A stretch of 48,749 bases of DNA from NCBI GenBank assembly GCA_016778745.1, contig JADHOZ010000001.1:1-48749 (forward strand). Direction: 5' to 3'. Source of the stretch: Rickettsiales bacterium. GTDB taxonomy: Bacteria; Pseudomonadota; Alphaproteobacteria; Rickettsiales; UBA1997. Positions 4,556 to 21,306 of the stretch are shown here, one piece after another; position 1 is the stretch's first letter; every line of letters starts with the position of its first letter. Under the pieces are notes generated by a model. That model was not told the origin of the DNA. It made no database searches and saw only the letters and a program-made list of their open reading frames with translations. The position numbers and the translations under genes were made by a program.

Positions 4556-5308
4556 ATGCTAAGCAAAGATCAACAACAACGTTATCTAAGAAACATAATC
4601 CTGCCAGAAATTGGCGAAAAGGGTCAACAAAAACTACTGACTGCCAGAGTTTTGGTGATTGGTTCAGGCGGCTTAGGATCTTCAGTTTTATTTTACTTAG
4701 CTGCCGCGGGTGTGGGTAACGTCGGCGTAATGGACTTTGACATCGTTGAATTATCAAACTTACAAAGACAAATAATTCATAATTTAAATGACATTAATAA
4801 AGCAAAAGTTCAAAGCGCTAAAGAAAAAATAAATAAATTAAATCCAAGTGTAAATCTTGAAGTTTTTGAAGAAAAAGCCACGCTAGAATCTCTAAAAAAA
4901 ATAGCCAAAAATTACGATTACATCATAGACGCAACCGATAATTTTCCAACAAGATTTATCATCAACGAATATTGCCTCAAAGCCAAAAAAATTCTCATAT
5001 TTGCTGCAGTAAAAGCATTTTCTGGTCAAGTGTCAGTCTTCAAGTCATATGAAAATAATAATCCATGTTATTCCTGCTTTAATCCTAATGTAGTCGGTGA
5101 AGGATTTTCTTTGCCGTTATCTGAGAAAGGGATATTGGGTTCAGTAGCTGGAACAATAGGTACCCTACAAGCAACTACTACAATTAAAGAAATTTTAGGA
5201 ATAGGTGAGTCGCTGGTTGGTAAGATGTTAATATTTGATTTTTTAGAAAACAAAATTCGTAAGATAAGCTTGAAGAAGAGAGAAAGTTGTAAAATTTGTA
5301 GTAACTGA
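4556..5308 (+). CDS. ThiF/MoeB/HesA-family adenylyltransferase
   Basis: 250 aa with the nucleotide-binding loop VLVIGSGGLGS, SNLQRQ, and paired CxxC motifs (CYSC, CKIC). Confidence 0.8.
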   Translation: MLSKDQQQRYLRNIILPEIGEKGQQKLLTARVLVIGSGGLGSSVLFYLAAAGVGNVGVMDFDIVELSNLQRQIIHNLNDINKAKVQSAKEKINKLNPSVNLEVFEEKATLESLKKIAKNYDYIIDATDNFPTRFIINEYCLKAKKILIFAAVKAFSGQVSVFKSYENNNPCYSCFNPNVVGEGFSLPLSEKGILGSVAGTIGTLQATTTIKEILGIGESLVGKMLIFDFLENKIRKISLKKRESCKICSN

Positions 5309-5378
5309 ATTTACTTAATTGACTTTCTAATTACTATCCATCAGAATCAGCGACCTTATTTTTATCCGTTTTATTTGC

Positions 5379-5464
5379 GGAGGAGTGGCCGAGCGGTCAA
5401 TGGCAACAGACTGTAAATCTGTCCGCGTAAGCGTACGCAGGTTCGAATCCTGCCTCCTCCACCA
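5379..5464 (+). tRNA. tRNA-Tyr (GTA), CCA encoded
   Basis: Cloverleaf folded by eye. Acceptor GGAGGAG/CTCCTCC, anticodon arm ACAGA-CTGTAAA-TCTGT, long variable arm, T arm GCAGG-TTCGAAT-CCTGC, ACCA end. Confidence 0.9.
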
Positions 5465-5501
5465 GCCTTCGCTCTTGTGAGCTATGGCTGGCAGGCCAGA
5501 C
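5465..5501 (+). repeat. Conserved tRNA 3' trailer, copy 1 (GCCTTCGCTCTTGTGAGCTATGGCTGGCAGGCCAGAC)
   Basis: About 31 of 36 aligned positions are identical to the trailer after the CAT-anticodon tRNA (8033-8068). CCAGCC (includes the CCA end) can pair with GGCTGG, enclosing a small inner hairpin GCTC-TTGT-GAGC. Confidence 0.7.
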
Positions 5502-5503
5502 AA

Positions 5504-5536
5504 ACTAAAATTACATATGCGGGTGTAGCTCAATGG
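5504..5536 (+). repeat. Upstream copy of a direct repeat: 15 nt of leader plus the first 18 nt of tRNA-Gly
   Basis: ACTAAAATTACATATGCGGGTGTAGCTCAATGG (5504-5536) versus ACTAAAATTAAATATGCGGGTGTAGCTCAATGG (5667-5699). 32 of 33 positions are identical. Confidence 0.9.
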
Positions 5537-5666
5537 GTTTTTCTTCAAAAAATAGCATTTAACATGCTATTTTTCCAAGAAAAACGGGCAAAGGAGTTTT
5601 TTAAAACGACGCATGCCCCGGCGCGATATTTTCTTCGAGCGAAGCGAGAAAAGAAATATCAGCGTT
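5537..5666 (+). ncRNA. tRNA-linked structured element, copy 1 (unclassified candidate ncRNA or miniature mobile element)
   Basis: Homologous to the reverse complement of 21116-21281. P1 is 5537-5545 GTTTTTCTT pairing with 5577-5585 AAGAAAAAC. P2 is 5548-5558 pairing with 5564-5574. P3 is 5625-5631 GATATTT pairing with 5654-5660 AAATATC. Conserved blocks: AAAAACGGG, AGGAG, TAAAACGACGCA, TCTTCGAGCGAA, AGAAAAG. Confidence 0.6.
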
Positions 5667-5681
5667 ACTAAAATTAAATAT

Positions 5682-5755
5682 GCGGGTGTAGCTCAATGGT
5701 AGAGCCCTAGCCTTCCAAGCTAGTCGTGAGGGTTCGATTCCCTTCACCCGCTCCA
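5682..5755 (+). tRNA. tRNA-Gly (TCC), CCA encoded
   Basis: GCGGGTG acceptor, anticodon arm CTAGC-CTTCCAA-GCTAG, T arm GAGGG-TTCGATT-CCCTT, 3' CACCCGC-T-CCA. Confidence 0.9.
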
Positions 5756-9495: not shown

Positions 9496-12372
9496 ATGAC
9501 AACAAACTTTTCTATTAAAAAAATGTCAAAAAATATAACACAGCATTTTAGCGATACTGCGCCGTTTTTTAGCACGAACGTCGTTTTTATTAATGAGCTT
9601 TACCAAAATTATCTAGCAAATCCCGCCTCTATTGACGAGTCTTGGGCCGACTTCTTTGCTAATAATAAATCTGAAGTCGAAGATATTTTATCTGATTATA
9701 ACGGCCCTAGTTGGTCAAAAAGAACGCTTAAAGTTGTTAAAGCTGGCGAATATGATATTTCAAATAATACTAAAAAAGAAGCGCCAAAATCTAAATCAAA
9801 TACTACTACCGAGCAAAAAGATTTAAAAGTTAGGCTCGATGCTTTAATCCTAGCTTATAAAGAGCATGGTCATTTAGCGGCTAATCTTGACCCCCTTAAT
9901 TTAACTAAAAAAATCCATGTTCCAGGCTTGGCACTAGAAAGTCATGATATTGAAAATGCAGATTTAGATAAAGAGGTCGAATTAAACGGCCAATTGGGGT
10001 TGCAAAAAGTAAAATTATCAGAAGCCATCAACCGAGTAAAGTCAATTTACGCTGGAAATGTTGGTTTTGAATTTGAATATATGCTAGATGTTGCTAAGAA
10101 AGAGTGGTTAGCAAAAGAATCTGAAAAAACTTTTATAACCGATTTAAGTGTAGCGGAAAAAAGAAAGTTGTTAAATGAGCTAATTAGAACGCAAAAATTT
10201 GAAGAATTTCTTCATAAAAGATTCCCGGGTGCAAAAAGATTCTCTGTTGAAGGTGGTGAATCATCAATTTGTGCCGTAGAAAAAGTAATCGAAGAGGGTT
10301 CGGAGTTAGGTCTTAAAAAAATCATTATCGGAATGGCACATCGTGGCCGCTTAAATACTCTAACCGGGGTTATGCGTAAACCTTACCACGAAATGATTGC
10401 GGAGTTTCAAGGTGTTCCAGGTCTTCCGGAAGGAATCACCAAATCAGGTGATGTTAAATATCACATGGGCTATGCCTCAACTCGTGAAATTAATGGTAAA
10501 AATATTGATCTATCCCTTGCTTTCAACCCATCGCACCTAGAAGCGGTTAATACTGTAGTAACGGGTAGAATCAGAGCAAAACAAGATGAATTTGGTGATA
10601 AAGATAAATCACAAGCAATGGCAATTTTAATTCACGGGGATGCGGCATTTGCTGGCCAAGGTTGTGTGGCTGAAAGTTTGGTTATGAATGGTGTTGGTGG
10701 TTATGACACCGGCGGCGTGATGCATATTATTGTTAATAACCAAGTAGGTTTCACCGCTAATCCAACTGATTCCAGAAGCACACGATATGCATCAGATTTA
10801 GCTAAATCAATTGATGCCCCAATTTTCCATGTAAATGGTGATGATGTTGAGTCAGTCGTTAAAGTTGCCGGTCTTGCAATGCGCTACCGTCAGCAATTTA
10901 AAAAAGACGTAGTCATTGACGTGATTTGCTACCGTAAATACGGCCACAATGAAGGTGACGAACCTCTTTACACTCAGCCTGTAATGTATTCGGTAATCAA
11001 ATCTCACCCAACAATTTGTGACATTTATTCCAAAGATTTAGAAAATAAAAACATAGTTTCTAAAGCTGATTACGAAAAATATGTCGCTGATTTTAATGAT
11101 CATCTCAATAAAGAATTTGAAAAAGCTAAAACCTACAAAGCAACCAATGCTAATTGGCTAGAAGCTAATTGGAGTAAAATTACAGAAGATAAGAAAAATC
11201 CAGAAACCAAAGTTTCAAAAAAAATCCTAAAAGAATTAGCAAAAAAAATTACTCACATTCCTGAAGGTTTTAATGCCAACAAGAAAATTGCCAAATTGTT
11301 AGATCAACGAAATGAAATGGTTGAATCTGGCGAAAATATTGACTGGGGAACGGCGGAGAGCCTTGCTTTTGCTAGCTTAATAAATGAAGGAACTAAAGTG
11401 AGAATAACCGGCCAAGATTCGGGACGTGGAACTTTCTCGCATCGTCACTCCGTACTCCACGATTCTAAAGACGGATCAGAATACGCAATATTTGACTCAC
11501 TAAGTGATAAAGTAAGTTACGAAGTATATGATTCAATTTTGTCTGAGTATGGTGTGTTAGGTTTTGAATATGGTTATTCACTTTCTGCGCCAAATGCTTT
11601 AACGATTTGGGAAGCGCAATTTGGTGATTTTGCTAATGGTGCGCAAATTATGTTTGACCAATTTATTGCTTCATCCGAAGTGAAATGGTTAAGAAAATCA
11701 GGCCTAGTAATGCTTTTACCTCATGGCTATGAAGGACAAGGCCCTGAACATTCTTCTGCAAGATTAGAGCGTTACCTTCAAGCATGCGCTGACAATAATT
11801 TAAGAGTTTGCAATATTACGAAACCAGCAAACTTCTTTCATGCTTTGAGAAGACAACTTCACTCCAAAGACAGAAAGCCTTTAGTAATAATGTCGCCAAA
11901 ATCACTTTTGCGTCACAAATTAAATGTTTCAAGCCTGTCTGAATTTAGTGACCTAAACTTCAGATCAGTAATTGCTGAAGAAGAAAAACTCGTTGCTAAT
12001 GACAAAGTTAAAAAAGTCATTTTATGTAGCGGTAAGGTTTATTATGATCTGTTAGAAGCAAGGACTGAAAAGAAAATTAAAGATATTGCTTTAATTAGAG
12101 TAGAGCAATTCTACCCATTTCCGAAAGAAGAATTATCAGTCGAACTTAAAAAATACAAAAATGCGCAAGTCGTTTGGTGCCAAGAAGAACCAAAAAATAT
12201 GGGTGCTTGGAAGTTCGTTGATGACTTACTCGAAGAAACTCTCATTTCGATTAAACATAAAATGAAGCGTCCAACTTATGTTGGCCGAATTGCTTCGGCA
12301 TCTCCAGCGACTGGATATGCGAAATATCATAAAAATGAGCAAGAAACTCTAATTAAGGAAGCCCTTAGTTAG
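9496..12372 (+). CDS. sucA: 2-oxoglutarate dehydrogenase E1 component
   Basis: The ORF track starts at 9445 (non-ATG). The first ATG is at 9496 and another is at 9523. The conserved N-terminus is [24 protein letters not shown]. ThDP-binding region and full-length E1o similarity are present. Confidence 0.9.
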
Positions 12373-17287: not shown

Positions 17288-17776
17288 TCATTCAATTTCT
17301 TCACACTCGCCATTGCCAATGTAAGCATCCAATCCGACAGTAGTAATTTCTTTGTAGCGTGAATTACCTAAGATTCTAATCAAACTTCCCAAAGGACCTT
17401 CAGCATGAATGTTGTAATAAATTCCGGCCGGTTCGAATTTAGCACTAATGCTTTCGCAATCCTCCTCACTGCAGCGAGTGATTTGCTTAGAATCTTTATC
17501 CAAAATTAAATAAGACGACACATCTTTCTTTTTACAAGACCATTTAGCGCATAAAAACCCGGTTCTGGGAGTGCATTTTAGTTTTTTCCATGACATGGAT
17601 TCACGACGATATTGCTGCGCCTGTTTAAATACGTCATCAAAATCCAATTTTTTAATTTTTTCATCTCTTGGATTATTTTCGTCTCTAATAATTTTATAAG
17701 ACACGGCAGATTCAGCAGAAACATTGAAACTAAATAAGGTAAAAAGAATAAATAAGAAGTTAAATAGTGATTTCAT
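17288..17776 (-). CDS. Secreted cysteine-containing hypothetical protein
   Basis: The ORF track extends to 17851. The ATG at 17776 gives MKSLFNFLFILFTLFSFNVSA-ES, a typical signal peptide. The mature part has 6 Cys. No recognisable family. Confidence 0.5.
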   Translation of the reverse strand: MKSLFNFLFILFTLFSFNVSAESAVSYKIIRDENNPRDEKIKKLDFDDVFKQAQQYRRESMSWKKLKCTPRTGFLCAKWSCKKKDVSSYLILDKDSKQITRCSEEDCESISAKFEPAGIYYNIHAEGPLGSLIRILGNSRYKEITTVGLDAYIGNGECEEIE

Positions 17777-18003
17777 GCCAATGAAATTTGATTTAATATT
17801 GATAGGCCATCTTAGGTAGATGGCAATGAAACCTAACGTCATGGATAACATATAGTTAAGATTTATTAAATCAATTTTAAAAAAATGGAGTCAGATTAGT
17901 AGCGGCGTTGAAATAATTTTATTGATATTTTGCGCAGGCAGTCATTAAATAAACCCAAATACCATGGGCAATATGCTCTATGAGTGTCTCACAAAATCAC
18001 ATC

Positions 18004-18726
18004 TTAAAGACGAAACTCTAAAATAAACTCGCTACCTTTACCAGATTGTGAATTGACACTCACAATTCCATTTTGTGCTTCTACTAATTCTTTAACTACT
18101 GACAGCCCTAATCCAAAGGACTCGGATATATTTTTATGGTTAGTTGAATTAAATTTTGTAAAAATACTGGTTAGGTCTTTTTCATCTATTCCATGTCCTT
18201 GGTCTTTAACTACAATTATTAATTTATCATTTTTTACAAAAGCCTTAATATGAACTGTGGTGTTATTGGGGCTATATTTAATGGCATTATTAATCAAATT
18301 TATCATGACTTGTTTGAGTCTTCGTTTATCCAAATAAACTTGTGGTAAGTTATCTTCTATTTCTACCTTGATGTTGATGTGAGACCGAAAAGCGAAGTCC
18401 CTATTAATTTTAATGGATTTGTTAATTACATCAGAAACATCGATTCTATTATTTAGGTCTATACTGAAATTAGAGAAGCTTTCTTTTTTGAAGAAATATA
18501 ATAAATCACCCAGCATTTCATTTAAATCATAGGCAACTTCTTGAATATCATTTATATATTCTTCGCAGTCTTCTTTTGAGTTTGTTTTATTAAGACTCAT
18601 TTTAATTATTTCAGAAAAACCAATGATGGCATTTAATGGGTTTTTTACTTCGTGAACCACACATGGAATCATCGATAATAAATTTGAGTATCTCACATCT
18701 TTGTCATTATACCTATGATGAGTCAT
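18004..18726 (-). CDS. Sensor-less histidine kinase core (DHp + HATPase_c only)
   Basis: 240 aa. H-box VHEVKNPLNAI starts about 20 aa from the N-terminus. N box NLINNAIKYS, G1 DQGHGI, F box FTKF, G2 GLGLSVVKELV. No TM, PAS or other input domain. No response regulator in the window. Confidence 0.8.
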   Translation of the reverse strand: MTHHRYNDKDVRYSNLLSMIPCVVHEVKNPLNAIIGFSEIIKMSLNKTNSKEDCEEYINDIQEVAYDLNEMLGDLLYFFKKESFSNFSIDLNNRIDVSDVINKSIKINRDFAFRSHINIKVEIEDNLPQVYLDKRRLKQVMINLINNAIKYSPNNTTVHIKAFVKNDKLIIVVKDQGHGIDEKDLTSIFTKFNSTNHKNISESFGLGLSVVKELVEAQNGIVSVNSQSGKGSEFILEFRL

Positions 18727-18841
18727 TGCTAATTTTTAAAAACATTAAAAGAGAGATAATTTGTATTATTAGAATCTCACTCTACTATAAGTCAAATTAA
18801 TAATTTTTATTATTATCATTAAAATAATTCATGATATTGTT

Positions 18842-19771
18842 ATGAGCAGTAAAGATTTTGTGTATAAAAATAATCCATTACAGCAGATAAAGGGTTTTTG
18901 CTATACTGTGCAAGAAAATAGTATGACTAAGGCTGCTCACAAAATCGGCATAACCCAGTCTGCTGTTAGTCATCAAATCAAATCACTTGAGAGGGATTTA
19001 GGAATTGAATTATTCATACGAGAAAAAAACAAAATCTTTTTAACCGAGGAAGGTATTATATTTTATAAACATGCTATTTCTTGTCTATCTGGAATAGAAA
19101 GCTTATTTGTAGATATAAAGAAAAATTTGAGAAATCAACAAAATCAAATTTCCATAGCATCAAATCATGCGGTAATATCGTATGTTTTGCCAAAATACCT
19201 AAAGAAATTTCGCGAAGATGAAAAGTTAATAAAATTTAAAATAAGAAACTTATCTAAACAAGATTGTTTTAATAAAATTCTAAATAACGAAGTCGATATT
19301 GTAATTTATCCAACAACTCAAGATGAAATACCAGACGAATTAGAGTTTTATTCAATGGTAAAATATCAGCCAATTCTACTTACTCATAAACAACATGCCT
19401 TGGCAAATAAGAAAGAAATTACACTAAAAGACGTATCAAAATATAATCTACTTAGAATCGACCCTAATTTAATAACTCTTCCAGGTTTTGAAGAATTGCT
19501 TAAGTCTCATAAAATAAGCTCGTCAATTGAGTTTGAGATGTCTGATTGGGAAATTTTAAAGAAATTTGTTAAAGCTGATTTGGGGGTTGCAATGATATCT
19601 AACATAGTTTTGGAAGGGGAAGAAGAGAAAGACTTATCTCAAATGCATATTACTCAGTATTTTCCTGAAATGGATTATGGTTTTTTTATCAAAAAAGGAA
19701 AAAAATTAGAAGGCGTCCTAGAAAATTTTGTTCGACTACTACAAAGTTACAAGCCATTAGAGGTGCAATAA
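18842..19771 (+). CDS. LysR-family transcriptional regulator
   Basis: 309 aa with an N-terminal HTH (SMTKAAHKIGITQSAVSHQIKSLERDLG) and a C-terminal substrate-binding domain. Divergent from the kinase gene. Confidence 0.85.
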   Translation: MSSKDFVYKNNPLQQIKGFCYTVQENSMTKAAHKIGITQSAVSHQIKSLERDLGIELFIREKNKIFLTEEGIIFYKHAISCLSGIESLFVDIKKNLRNQQNQISIASNHAVISYVLPKYLKKFREDEKLIKFKIRNLSKQDCFNKILNNEVDIVIYPTTQDEIPDELEFYSMVKYQPILLTHKQHALANKKEITLKDVSKYNLLRIDPNLITLPGFEELLKSHKISSSIEFEMSDWEILKKFVKADLGVAMISNIVLEGEEEKDLSQMHITQYFPEMDYGFFIKKGKKLEGVLENFVRLLQSYKPLEVQ

Positions 19772-19814
19772 TAATTTTGCCAAACTTTTGAGATTTAAAT
19801 ATTCTTGTTTAGTT

Positions 19815-19844
19815 TACATCTATTGGCGAAATAATCTAGATGTA
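19815..19844. promoter_or_regulatory. Dyad TACATCTA-N14-TAGATGTA upstream of the cupin gene
   Basis: 8-bp perfect inverted repeat 39-68 nt upstream of the 19883 start, directly downstream of the LysR gene. Candidate operator or terminator-like hairpin. Confidence 0.3.
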
Positions 19845-19882
19845 GGGAGTGCAGAAAAAAATCAAATATTATCCTAATTAAA

Positions 19883-21036
19883 ATGAGAACAGCATACTTT
19901 ACAAAGTTACCAAGGAGACAAAACATCAATCGCACTTTAAGTTCAATGTTGGATGGTATGGGTATAGGATATGCGTCAATATATCAAGCTCGATTATATT
20001 CCAGTGAGTCCGGTGATGATTTGCCAATGCAATATACAAAAATAAAAGATGTTGAAAATGATGAAATTAATAGGTTTAGTGTTATACCAGCTAAATTACA
20101 AAAATATCCTAAAGGTTTGTTAATAGATCCTAGACAGAAAAAAGTTTTTCAAATTGCTAATCAAGATATATCATTATCTCCTCAAGATACAATGAGACAA
20201 TTAGTGGTTTTCTCAAAAGATGGTATAGACATAAAATACGCAAAGAGGGGTGTCGCGGCATCGAGATCAGAATCATTAGAAGAGATGTTAAAAAAGGTAC
20301 CTTTTCCATACCTAGAGATTCATTTGGTGTGCTTGATATACAAGAACACGTCCCTTTTAGAATTGATACTAAAGATGAGCAATCGTTCGTCATTTCATCT
20401 AGTCAATTATTGGAAGTTCCTACCTTTGAAGAAAATATTTCAAGATATAATTTAGTGAAAATTATAGATATACCACCAGAGACTGCAAAAATACTTTCTA
20501 TCAATTTACAAAGAGCCATATACGAAGATAAAAATAATGAATATTTTTATGAAGAAGTAACCGCAAAAAAATATTCACCAACAAAATATAATAGAAGCAG
20601 TGGTACATTAATGAATTTTGAAACAGATTTATTAGGAGTTGAGCGAAGAACAGAATCACATTATCACCCAGGCGAAAGAAGTTTGTATATAGTTACTACC
20701 AATAAGACAGCGGGAGTAACTCTTAATTTTTGCGGTATAGTTGAAAGCCCGGACGATAGAAAGGATTGTGAAGTAAAACTGGAGTTCCCAAAAAACTCAA
20801 TTTTATCTCTAAATTTTCCACCCTATACTCACCATAAATTTAATGGAGAGTTTATCTGCATGAGTATACACCCAAGAGAAGGAGCGAATCTAATAGAATC
20901 ATTAGAAAACGGCACTTTGCCTAAAGGATTTCTTGAAAGTGCTACTGTTTTCTCCCCCAAGGGCGAGAGTTGGAGAGTGAGTAACCCGGAAGCTCATGAT
21001 ACACAAAGCAGAGATGCTTCTTCAGGCAGATCGTAA
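19883..21036 (+). CDS. Cupin-domain protein encoded in two overlapping frames (19883-20455 and 20161/20329-21036), joinable at 20290-20296
   Basis: The C-terminal part has cupin motifs ESHYHPGERSLYIV and FPPYTHHKFNGEF. The zero-frame tail after 20296 looks like out-of-frame junk. A -1 change at A_AAA_AAG gives a continuous 384-aa product. The stop codon abuts the 3' end of tRNA-Arg. Confidence 0.45.
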
Positions 21037-21113
21037 TGGCGCACCCGAGAGGATTCGAACCCCTAACCTTCTGATCCGTAGTCAGATGCTCTATCCAGTT
21101 GAGCCACGGGTGC
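21037..21113 (-). tRNA. tRNA-Arg (ACG), CCA encoded
   Basis: Reverse complement is GCACCCGTGGCTCAACTGGATAGAGCATCTGACTACGGATCAGAAGGTTAGGGGTTCGAATCCTCTCGGGTGCGCCA. Anticodon loop is CTACGGA. Confidence 0.9.
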
Positions 21114-21115
21114 AT

Positions 21116-21281
21116 TTAGATAATTTATTAAGCTAAAGATTTACTCTTCTTCTTAAATTTCCATTAATTCCTTTTCTTGCTTTCGCTCGAAGAGAATTAA
21201 TGGTCTGGGTTTGCGTCGTTTTACTCCTGAACCCGTTTTTAACTAAAATTGATTATTAATCAATTTTTTAACGTTAAAAAC
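21116..21281 (-). ncRNA. tRNA-linked structured element, copy 2 (unclassified candidate ncRNA or miniature mobile element)
   Basis: In tRNA orientation it aligns with 5537-5666. P1 is 21273-21281 pairing with 21235-21243 (GTTTTTAAC/GTTAAAAAC). P2 is the palindrome at 21245-21267. P3 is 21194-21203 pairing with 21161-21170 (CCATTAATTC/GAATTAATGG). It shares the same conserved blocks. Confidence 0.6.
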
Positions 21282-21306
21282 CTATCCAGTTGAGCCACGG
21301 GTGCAT
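21282..21306 (-). repeat. Upstream copy of a direct repeat: 2 nt of leader plus the first 23 nt of tRNA-Arg
   Basis: CTATCCAGTTGAGCCACGGGTGCAT at 21282-21306 is identical (25 of 25) to 21091-21115. Confidence 0.9.

Follow-up and report, generated by a model that had tools for sequence, protein, structure and literature searches.

The window analysed here is a complete contig of 48,749 bp from an assembly labelled 'Rickettsiales bacterium' at NCBI, and it carries housekeeping genes of ordinary alphaproteobacterial type together with four tRNA genes. ARAGORN and Rfam place tRNA-Arg(ACG) at 21037-21113 on the minus strand and tRNA-Gly(UCC) at 5682-5755 on the plus strand. A direct-repeat finder reports a 25-nt pair with 100% identity at the former (21091-21115 and 21282-21306) and a 33-nt pair with 32 of 33 nucleotides matching (97%) at the latter (5504-5536 and 5667-5699), and these are the sole short-range repeats adjoining tRNAs in the window. 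Read in the tRNA orientation, the tRNA-Arg locus runs from a stub of the gene (21306-21282) through an element core (21281-21161) and a spacer (21160-21116) into the intact tRNA. Its features are listed below.

21282-21306, minus strand: stub of 2 nt of leader plus tRNA-Arg positions 1-23, the left repeat copy, ending after G22 in the D-arm
21161-21281, minus strand: element core of 121 nt, supported by inverted repeats, folds and a covariance-model match
21273-21281 with 21235-21243, minus strand: stem P1
21257-21267 with 21245-21255, minus strand: stem P2
21230-21234 with 21207-21211, minus strand: stem P3, enclosing CAGGAG, a mini-hairpin and GACGCA
21194-21203 with 21161-21170, minus strand: stem P5, enclosing the core TCTTCGAGCGAAAGCAAGAAAAG (21171-21193)
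21116-21160, minus strand: AT-rich spacer of 45 nt with a hairpin of its own (arms 21122-21132 and 21149-21159)
21037-21115, minus strand: intact tRNA-Arg(ACG) (21037-21113) with 2 nt of leader, the right repeat copy being 21091-21115

The tRNA-Gly locus is ordered as tRNA-Tyr, a spacer, tRNA-Gly positions 1-18, an element of 130 nt, a 15-nt spacer and the intact tRNA-Gly, as follows.

5319-5464, plus strand: upstream context, with a promoter-like site recognised by consensus match (5319-5347) and tRNA-Tyr (5379-5464)
5504-5536, plus strand: left repeat, 15 nt of Tyr-Gly spacer plus tRNA-Gly positions 1-18 (5519-5536), ending after G19
5537-5666, plus strand: element of 130 nt, supported by folds, inverted repeats and a covariance-model match
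5537-5585, plus strand: stems P1 and P2
5586-5590 with 5614-5618, plus strand: stem P3
5602-5613, plus strand: block TAAAACGACGCA
5632-5653, plus strand: P5 core, the 3' strand of P5 extending to about 5664
5667-5755, plus strand: right repeat (5667-5699), continuing into the intact tRNA-Gly(UCC) (5682-5755)

The first-pass annotation had read the 25-nt repeat as 2 nt of leader plus tRNA-Arg 1-23, with which the repeat finder and the ARAGORN and Rfam placements agree. Alignment likewise upholds its statements that the 166 nt enclosed by the Arg repeats can be aligned with the Gly copy and that the blocks AAAAACGGG, AGGAG, TAAAACGACGCA, TCTTCGAGCGAA and AGAAAAG are common to both copies, and the stems that it drew at tRNA-Arg (GTTTTTAAC/GTTAAAAAC, AAAATTGATTA/TAATCAATTTT and CCATTAATTC/GAATTAATGG) are recovered, along with their Gly counterparts, as inverted repeats and in minimum-energy folds. 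The extra AT-rich stretch that it described in the Arg copy measures 45 nt (21116-21160). Its claim that the same element is present at both loci accords with a family covariance model spanning the 3' two thirds of the element, which matches the window at 21158-21260 (105.6 bits) and 5560-5666 (84.7 bits) and nowhere else. Homologues of the 45-nt Arg spacer are the spacer of a related locus, L042, and remnants at another, L038; the spacer is probably ancestral sequence upstream of the tRNA that was duplicated. A possible pairing of the Arg stub with the element's CGGGUUCA is absent from other copies and was taken as chance.

A promoter scan of the tRNA strand detected no promoter-like site within the element in either copy, and the sole promoter-like match inside a copy, at 21220-21249, lies on the opposite strand. 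The only tRNA-strand promoter-like site found is the one upstream of tRNA-Tyr (5319-5347); thus, the Gly stub and element are probably transcribed within the Tyr-Gly precursor, and, judging from the sequence, the element is probably transcribed within tRNA precursors more generally. In predicted folds of whole precursors, the stub and the genuine 5' strand compete to pair with the 3' strand of the acceptor stem, which would, if anything, be a cost to the host. P2 was also considered as an intrinsic terminator and set aside, as the scan's criteria did not class it as a terminator in the window copies. No ORF lies within the element, and Pfam domains in the unassigned ORFs of the window include no transposase, reverse transcriptase, integrase or nuclease; neither a mobilising gene nor an integrase was seen in the annotated related loci.

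A dispersed family with a covarying fold

Metagenomes were scanned with a pattern of three blocks drawn from four copies (CGACGCA ... TCTTCGAGC ... AGAAAAG), which yielded 29 matching loci, 26 of them real and three, located inside ORFs, discarded as chance. A tRNA gene on the same strand directly follows the element at about two thirds of the real loci, with ten isoacceptors represented: Gly-UCC, Arg-ACG, Arg-CCG, Val-UAC, Val-GAC, Ser-GCU, Ser-UGA, Ser-GGA, Ala-GGC and Met. Copies outside this context overlap the final codons of ORFs, namely dut (GGFGSTG/LKA-stop, the slash marking the junction), tolB (..DPDW/V-stop), hemF (..AKW/D-stop) and lysC, where the first stem of the element provides the stop codon, and two more are located directly after the stop codons of recA and yidC. 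The orientation is always that of the flanking gene. Across the collected loci, the covariance model has 45 matches. Assemblies break at the element, as the contigs L043 and L044 end there.

The pattern had no match in a viral contig collection, BLAST against plasmids and phages returned no match to the element, and a literature search by concept and by the conserved strings did not find the family. A scan of a genome collection with a narrower pattern, AAACGACGCA...TCTTCGAGCG, gave chance matches in GC-rich genomes only; most family members have AAGCGACGCA. At gathering scores, Rfam 15 reports only the four tRNAs in the window, and a permissive search of both loci (E up to 10) returned element-overlapping matches with E values of 0.05 to 7, far below threshold; the Rfam 15 families left unmatched include HEARO/omega RNA, IS605-associated RNAs, self-cleaving ribozymes and alphaproteobacterial sRNAs. 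The family is widespread, occurs in a clade of AT-rich aquatic Alphaproteobacteria and matches no Rfam family.

The architecture comprises five stems, in which P1 encloses P2, P3 encloses a mini-hairpin and P5 comes last, and the two window copies fold more stably than shuffled sequence (z = -4.1 and -5.7). P1 has 8-9 bp, always begins with G and occurs in more than 12 different sequences. P2, the hairpin that it encloses, lies between an A-run and a T-run; some copies have an additional hairpin in this region, and one lacks P2. When P1 and P2 were folded independently, copy by copy, 23 copies gave 424 Watson-Crick pairs, nine G.U pairs and a single A.C mismatch. P3 is a stem of 5 bp around CAGGAG, the variable mini-hairpin and GACGCA, while P5 is a variable stem around UCUUCGAGC, a loop and GCGAGAAAAG. 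For P3 to P5 in 28 distinct copies, 98.6% of the cells are paired and double changes occur at nine of 18 pairs, in an alignment that was fitted to the covariance model and is biased toward structure; none of 500 shuffles reaches the observed covariation, and no slid register comes near it. All five stems covary, their sequences drifting while pairing is kept, and covariation across diverged copies is what is generally expected of a conserved structured RNA or single-stranded DNA element.

Two cores remain invariant against this drift. One is G-GA-GC(loop)GC-GA-C within CAGGAG...GACGCA, and the other is UCUUC-GA-GC(loop)GC-GA-GAAAAG; from their sequence, both can be drawn as tandem G.A/A.G pairs capped by a GC-GC hairpin whose loop is of GNRA type or has three bases. 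Because of an invariant U.G pair and the purine asymmetry of the cores, the fold is specific to the tRNA strand. A coding function is excluded, since loop lengths differ between copies by single nucleotides. In both window copies, the inverted repeats are all internal stems, none of which pairs the left end with the right end, and there is no terminal inverted repeat. The invariant motifs are likewise internal, away from the element ends. A likeness of the cores to SRP helix 8, the T-loop, the K-turn or CsrA sites was perceived by eye only and was unsupported by any search.

Insertion sites, duplications and movement

The base preceding the element is always G, and the left-flank rule common to the copies is RG followed by the junction. 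Where the left flank at a tRNA gene is intact, the element is preceded by the 5' piece of the same tRNA, ending in the D-arm after G15 (Val, Ala and Ser), G19 (Gly and Met) or G22 (Arg). Copies in tRNA context with a readable stub have a significant direct repeat abutting the left junction; these repeats are 16-47 nt long, start at the insertion point and run back past the tRNA +1. L047 and L069 are exceptions without a stub, and L063 (Arg-CCG), which ends at a contig edge, was left unscored. The ORF target sequences GCTAAATGG, GCTTATGG and GGATCAACAGG, each read up to the junction, resemble the D-loop DNA GCTCAATGG, likewise read up to the junction, and GGCTCAACTGG.

At the ORF-end and intergenic copies (dut, tolB, hemF, lysC, recA and yidC), no flanking repeats were found, so it is not demonstrable that a long duplication is inherent in insertion. 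These copies may be old insertions from which a useless second repeat copy has gone. L047, which also has no repeat, is 98% identical to a repeat-bearing copy and is truncated at its own 5' end, thus suggesting a later deletion.

Related genomes provide unoccupied sites for comparison. At L074, whose UvrB is 92% identical to that of the window, tRNA-Tyr is followed by a 63-nt spacer and tRNA-Gly without an element, and the spacer between tRNA-Tyr and the stub in the window is homologous to this Tyr-Gly spacer; the window Gly state is therefore an insertion after G19 accompanied by a 33-nt duplication. The Tyr-Gly site is also free of the element at L076 (86% UvrB identity). In contrast, L077 (85%) has a related element at the same Gly site, with P1 as in the window, P2 differing by one compensatory pair and P3 changed from GGGCA/TGCCC to GAGAA/TTCTC. 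The tRNA-Arg site lacks the element in L036, retains only remnants of P5 and the spacer hairpin in L038, and in L042 has two tandem units with identical 3' halves and 5' halves that differ by compensatory changes. Genomes in which related copies at the same site differ by compensatory changes have UvrB or RecA 85-89% identical, which gives a hint of selection on the resident element, i.e., of host benefit. Between L057 and L053, one lineage is mutated at conserved positions.

Movement has been recent, as copies at different loci remain close in sequence: 98% identical between Ser-UGA and Ser-GGA, 94% between Val-UAC and Val-GAC and 88% between tolB and hemF. Insertion has also been serial. Two divergent elements are stacked at the tRNA-Ser-GCU site, and both have a stub of their own; that of the older element has decayed, and a perfect 44-nt repeat reaching 29 nt upstream of +1 flanks the younger one. 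Tandem repeats of partial units (P3-P5 or P5 alone) are also found, and from such arrays it follows that cycles of unequal exchange do occur.

Stubs are mostly identical to their own tRNA, though the sequence immediately upstream has often diverged. In L077, both the stub and its tRNA have C16, whereas the window has T16 in both places; decayed older stubs are found at L058, L071-E1, L042B and L054. The identity could reflect recent or repeated insertion, concerted evolution through unequal exchange, or selection acting on the stub. Such identity beside a diverged upstream flank would not be expected of a target duplication that was simply neutral. Two other origins of the stub were considered. 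A transduced piece of a donor tRNA is ruled out by the fit of every stub to the local tRNA. Tandem duplication from an element first located upstream of the tRNA was rejected for the window Gly copy, where the stub abuts the ancestral Tyr-Gly spacer; the same process accounts for L042, L048, L065, L069 and L073.

These comparisons bear on three further statements of the first-pass annotation. Selection on structure, which it had argued from changes between two copies that by themselves do not suffice as proof of covariation, is supported by family-wide covariation in the 28 distinct copies. Its view that the flanking repeats were made locally is sustained by readable stubs that match the adjoining tRNA across ten isoacceptors and by the unoccupied Tyr-Gly site in a relative. 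It had also doubted that both loci arose from one recent duplication with gene conversion, a scenario that the family-wide distribution excludes. The occurrence at ORF 3' ends without repeats, the two further stems with invariant G.A cores and the tandem and serial copies had not been foreseen.

A probable mobile structured repeat and its alternatives

On balance, we consider it somewhat probable that the element is a non-autonomous mobile structured repeat of about 120-170 nt, defined by its fold. It inserts directly after G, usually after RG, and its favoured sites are the D-loop region of tRNA genes (after G15, G19 or G22) and D-loop-like sequence in the last codons of ORFs, where its 5' end supplies the stop codon. 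In tRNA genes, insertion goes together with duplication of the 16-47 bp that lie between the insertion point and a position beyond +1, whereby an intact tRNA is rebuilt downstream and a 5' stub remains upstream. The element is probably read on one strand, as single-stranded DNA or RNA, by a trans-acting protein encoded elsewhere, for which the invariant G.A hairpins are candidate binding sites; the duplication may result from widely staggered strand breaks at insertion, and the survivors may be only those insertions that restored the tRNA. The resident element is probably transcribed as part of a tRNA leader or an mRNA 3' end.

The stub itself is best read as a target duplication that arose locally and leaves the tRNA in working order. 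An active stub, in which the tRNA-identical 5' segment guides homing or a SINE-like element builds its insertions from tRNA-precursor fragments, appears improbable; if true, it would explain the stub-tRNA identity, the tracking of the substitution in L077 and the repeated hits on the D-arm in ten tRNAs.

Several known systems share features with a mobile structured repeat of this kind. Rickettsia palindromic elements (RPEs) are strongly folding, non-autonomous elements of about 100-150 bp in Rickettsiales that insert non-destructively in genes, including RNA genes, and they are typically found in frame inside ORFs and translated. Both they and the present element are small, folding, non-autonomous, gene-inserting repeats, likened here by description and not by sequence; however, the element is located at ORF ends or in tRNA genes rather than in frame within ORFs, and we know of no report of RPEs that target the tRNA D-loop or leave tRNA stubs. 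REP/BIME sequences, REPINs mobilised by RAYT and IS200/IS605-derived elements resemble the element in having one-strand hairpins instead of terminal inverted repeats, and their movement in trans by a single-copy enzyme, intergenic location and transcription with neighbouring genes are counted as further likeness. The two similar hairpins in the same orientation also recall the left-end and right-end hairpins of IS200/IS605, although those of the element are internal. REP and IS200/IS605-derived elements make no target duplication and use a fixed target of 4-5 nt, a combination not found here, where an RG rule and duplications of 16-47 nt at tRNA genes are observed instead; moreover, REPs are simple palindromes of 20-40 nt with a GTAG head, whereas the element has five stems and internal invariant G.A cores.

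Correia/CREE, ERIC, BOX and RUP-type MITEs are similarly non-coding, of similar size, abundant and transcribed with flanking genes, and their transcripts can be terminators, processing sites or stabilisers. The terminal inverted repeats and the short fixed-length duplications (TA in Correia) that define classical MITEs are both missing from the element, which has long variable repeats. For such duplications, IS1634/IS1549-type elements provide a precedent, as they transpose with unusually long and variable target duplications; unlike the element, they are autonomous, with a DDE-transposase and terminal inverted repeats. Integrative elements that target tRNA genes, and the related CIMEs, share with the element part-tRNA direct repeats and a gene rebuilt alongside. 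The known ones insert at the anticodon loop, T-loop or 3' end, are kilobases long and bear an integrase, in contrast to an element of about 130 nt at the 5' D-arm; no integrase was found in the element, in the unassigned ORFs of the window or in the annotated related loci, and no autonomous relative was identified. The tyrT-linked rtT repeats of E. coli lie 3' of the tRNA, carry its 3' end and are confined to a single locus, and thus are tRNA-attached units with a short piece of that tRNA but not a dispersed structured family. To our knowledge, no bacterial element has been recorded at the 5' D-arm of tRNA genes, a site that known elements would leave unused because insertion there separates the tRNA from its promoter.

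Four other explanations were weighed against a mobile repeat, of which the most serious, and one compatible with it, is that the element is a host-beneficial cis-acting RNA module that serves the neighbouring tRNA or mRNA as insulator, attenuator, processing platform or stabiliser, its spread being secondary. The constant placement on the strand of the flanking gene, the strand-specific fold with its invariant U.G pair and GNRA-type loops, and the location of P2 between an A-run and a T-run directly behind stop codons all argue for such a module, as do the compensatory changes between same-site copies (window and L077 at Gly, window and L042 at Arg); the lack of a tRNA-strand promoter-like site inside either copy makes co-transcription with the tRNA probable. 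Nevertheless, the close relatives L036, L074 and L076 do without the element at the same loci, conserved positions are mutated in L057 relative to L053, L038 is reduced to remnants, and the window copies do not qualify as terminators in the scan. Furthermore, near-identical copies at unrelated loci and stacked insertions resemble transposition, and we regard this explanation as rather unlikely, though worth serious attention. A lower probability still is given to decayed ends of tyrosine- or serine-integrase integrative elements, with the stub and the tRNA representing attL and attR and a tRNA segment in attP rebuilding the gene. Direct repeats of a segment running from a tRNA loop to slightly past the gene end were reportedly described by Williams in 2002 as the classic signature of tRNA-targeting integrases, and tRNA-segment repeats do flank the element beside a rebuilt gene. 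Small inserts between repeats of the tRNA 3' end in L042, L036 and L074 point the same way, and integrative elements typically also enter ORF 3' ends and supply a new stop codon. Yet every copy and its vicinity are free of integrase genes, the element has only 120-170 nt, and ten tRNAs would require ten matching attP variants, while elements 94-98% identical reside in different tRNAs with each stub fitting the local gene; covarying stems with invariant loops are also foreign to attP arms, and known integrases act at the 3' part of the tRNA and not at the 5' part.

An origin as a SINE-like retroelement, whose RNA would be turned into DNA at a nicked site through target-primed reverse transcription or template switching onto tRNA-precursor fragments, is held to be just as doubtful as decayed integrative elements. 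It would accommodate the variation in duplication length from 16 to 47 nt, the repeats that in several cases start within 1-5 nt of the tRNA +1, the A-rich 3' tails of some copies, the 5' truncation of L047 and the strand-specific fold, and the stubs, at 15, 18-19 and 23 nt, are similar in length to 5' tRNA fragment classes. It fits poorly with an inconsistent A-tail, with repeats that reach 14-30 nt upstream of +1 and with the tandem, non-dispersed arrangement of partial copies; no reverse transcriptase was seen, and we know of no SINE-like element in bacteria. The least credible of the four, and very improbable in our view, is a guide-plus-scaffold RNA of the IscB omega RNA or natural single-guide type, in which the stub would be the 5' guide to the tRNA gene. 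A tRNA-identical segment of 15-23 nt immediately 5' of a GUUUUU... hairpin scaffold has the expected layout, and the stub tracks the tRNA substitution in L077; however, HEARO and IS605-associated RNA families are not matched in Rfam even permissively, genes for IscB, TnpB or Cas proteins were not seen in the window, and the would-be target is followed by TTGG, TAGA, AGCA or NGG without a consistent PAM/TAM motif. ORF-end copies lack a comparable guide logic, older stubs decay, and the flanks cannot be joined into an ancestral empty site of the IS605 type.

In practical terms, the stubs and repeats break assemblies and can mislead tRNA and pseudogene annotation in the assembled genomes of the clade. 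The family, with its dozens of copies that covary, its occupied and unoccupied sites and its stacked insertions, constitutes a comparative data set for finding an enzyme that would read the two G.A hairpins and for studying how repeats are tolerated in streamlined, AT-rich genomes. If the element is indeed a non-autonomous mobile repeat, it would represent an undescribed family of structured mobile repeats that preferentially lands in the 5' D-arm of tRNA genes, where it would persist through rebuilding of the gene by a long local duplication.

Variation on the 3' side of tRNA-Arg

The 3' side of tRNA-Arg has features of its own: a variable islet in the window, and a second small element at the equivalent locus of two relatives, L042, in which the structured element is present as a tandem pair, and L036, which is without it.

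L042 11472-11610: second small element, 3' of tRNA-Arg
L036 4116-4310: second small element, 3' of tRNA-Arg
Window 17288-21036: variable islet of ~3.7 kb, adjoining the 3' end of tRNA-Arg

The small element opens with a copy of the 5' half of the T-arm, GGGGTTCGA, continues with an insert of ~75 nt in which the block common to the copies is TTTTTCTTAATRAACGWTAGT, and closes with a duplication of the final 18 nt of the tRNA, ATCCTGTCGGGTGCACCA; it is adjoined in L036 by an inverted, incomplete copy of the tRNA-Arg 3' end. It is unrelated to the structured element on the 5' side, and it was not found in the window.

Window 17288-21036 is a variable islet at tRNA-Arg: its content is not that of the relatives, which have a Fic protein (L036) or a 163-aa ORF (L038, a further relative at this locus) at the same position. 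In the window it encodes a fragment of a histidine kinase and a LysR regulator, together with a pair of ORFs that overlap in different frames (19883-20455 and 20329-21036), neither of which has a Pfam match.

The tRNA-Tyr/tRNA-Gly neighbourhood

Window 5465-5499: hairpin-forming trailer GCYTTCGCTCTTNNGAGCTAYGSNTGGCAGGCCA, immediately 3' of the tRNA-Tyr CCA end
L074 2500-2640: insert of ~62 nt with its own hairpin, 3' of tRNA-Gly

The trailer is conserved after tRNA-Tyr in every relative examined (L074, L075 and L076) and in one of these, L076, also follows tRNA-Gly (2904-2940). The insert in L074, a site without the structured element, is bounded on both sides by a 31-nt direct repeat comprising the last 10 nt of tRNA-Gly and 21 nt of trailer; thus, long tRNA-rebuilding duplications are not exclusive to the structured element. 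With respect to thiF and uvrB, the tRNA-Tyr/tRNA-Gly pair of L074 (2623-2845) points the opposite way from that of the window (5379-5755), and tRNA-Met likewise lies on the opposite strand. Around uvrB and the tRNAs, toxin-antitoxin genes, namely RelB/YafQ, ParDE and a candidate Zeta toxin (weak Pfam match), are inserted in the relatives L075, L076 and L077.

Layered and tandem copies of the structured element

L071 2500-2625: third tRNA-Ser fragment, between the two elements stacked at tRNA-Ser-GCU; same stretch in the metagenome loci L058 and L062

This fragment, decayed and longer, covers about positions 4-24, and after it comes a small A/T hairpin, AAAAACTTTTCAAGTTTTT; the arrangement suggests a still earlier insertion at another D-arm position. 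Elsewhere, five metagenome loci contain head-to-tail repeats, with periods of 76-123 nt, in which the repeated sub-unit is P3-P5, P2-P5 or P5 alone:

L055 993-1256: sub-unit repeats
L066 796-981: sub-unit repeats
L070 3025-3351: sub-unit repeats
L056 about 5100-5300: sub-unit repeats
L063 1479-1597: sub-unit repeats

A different short repeat, AAAAAAGCGTCC..CTAAGCRCAGCCGAAAAAAGCGACGCC, with at least two tandem units, lies downstream of the hemF element copy in L072 (about 1965-2100).

The structured element fragments assemblies: the organism of L042 was assembled independently in L043 and L044, and both contigs end at about 11204-11217, at the first unit of the L042 tandem pair.
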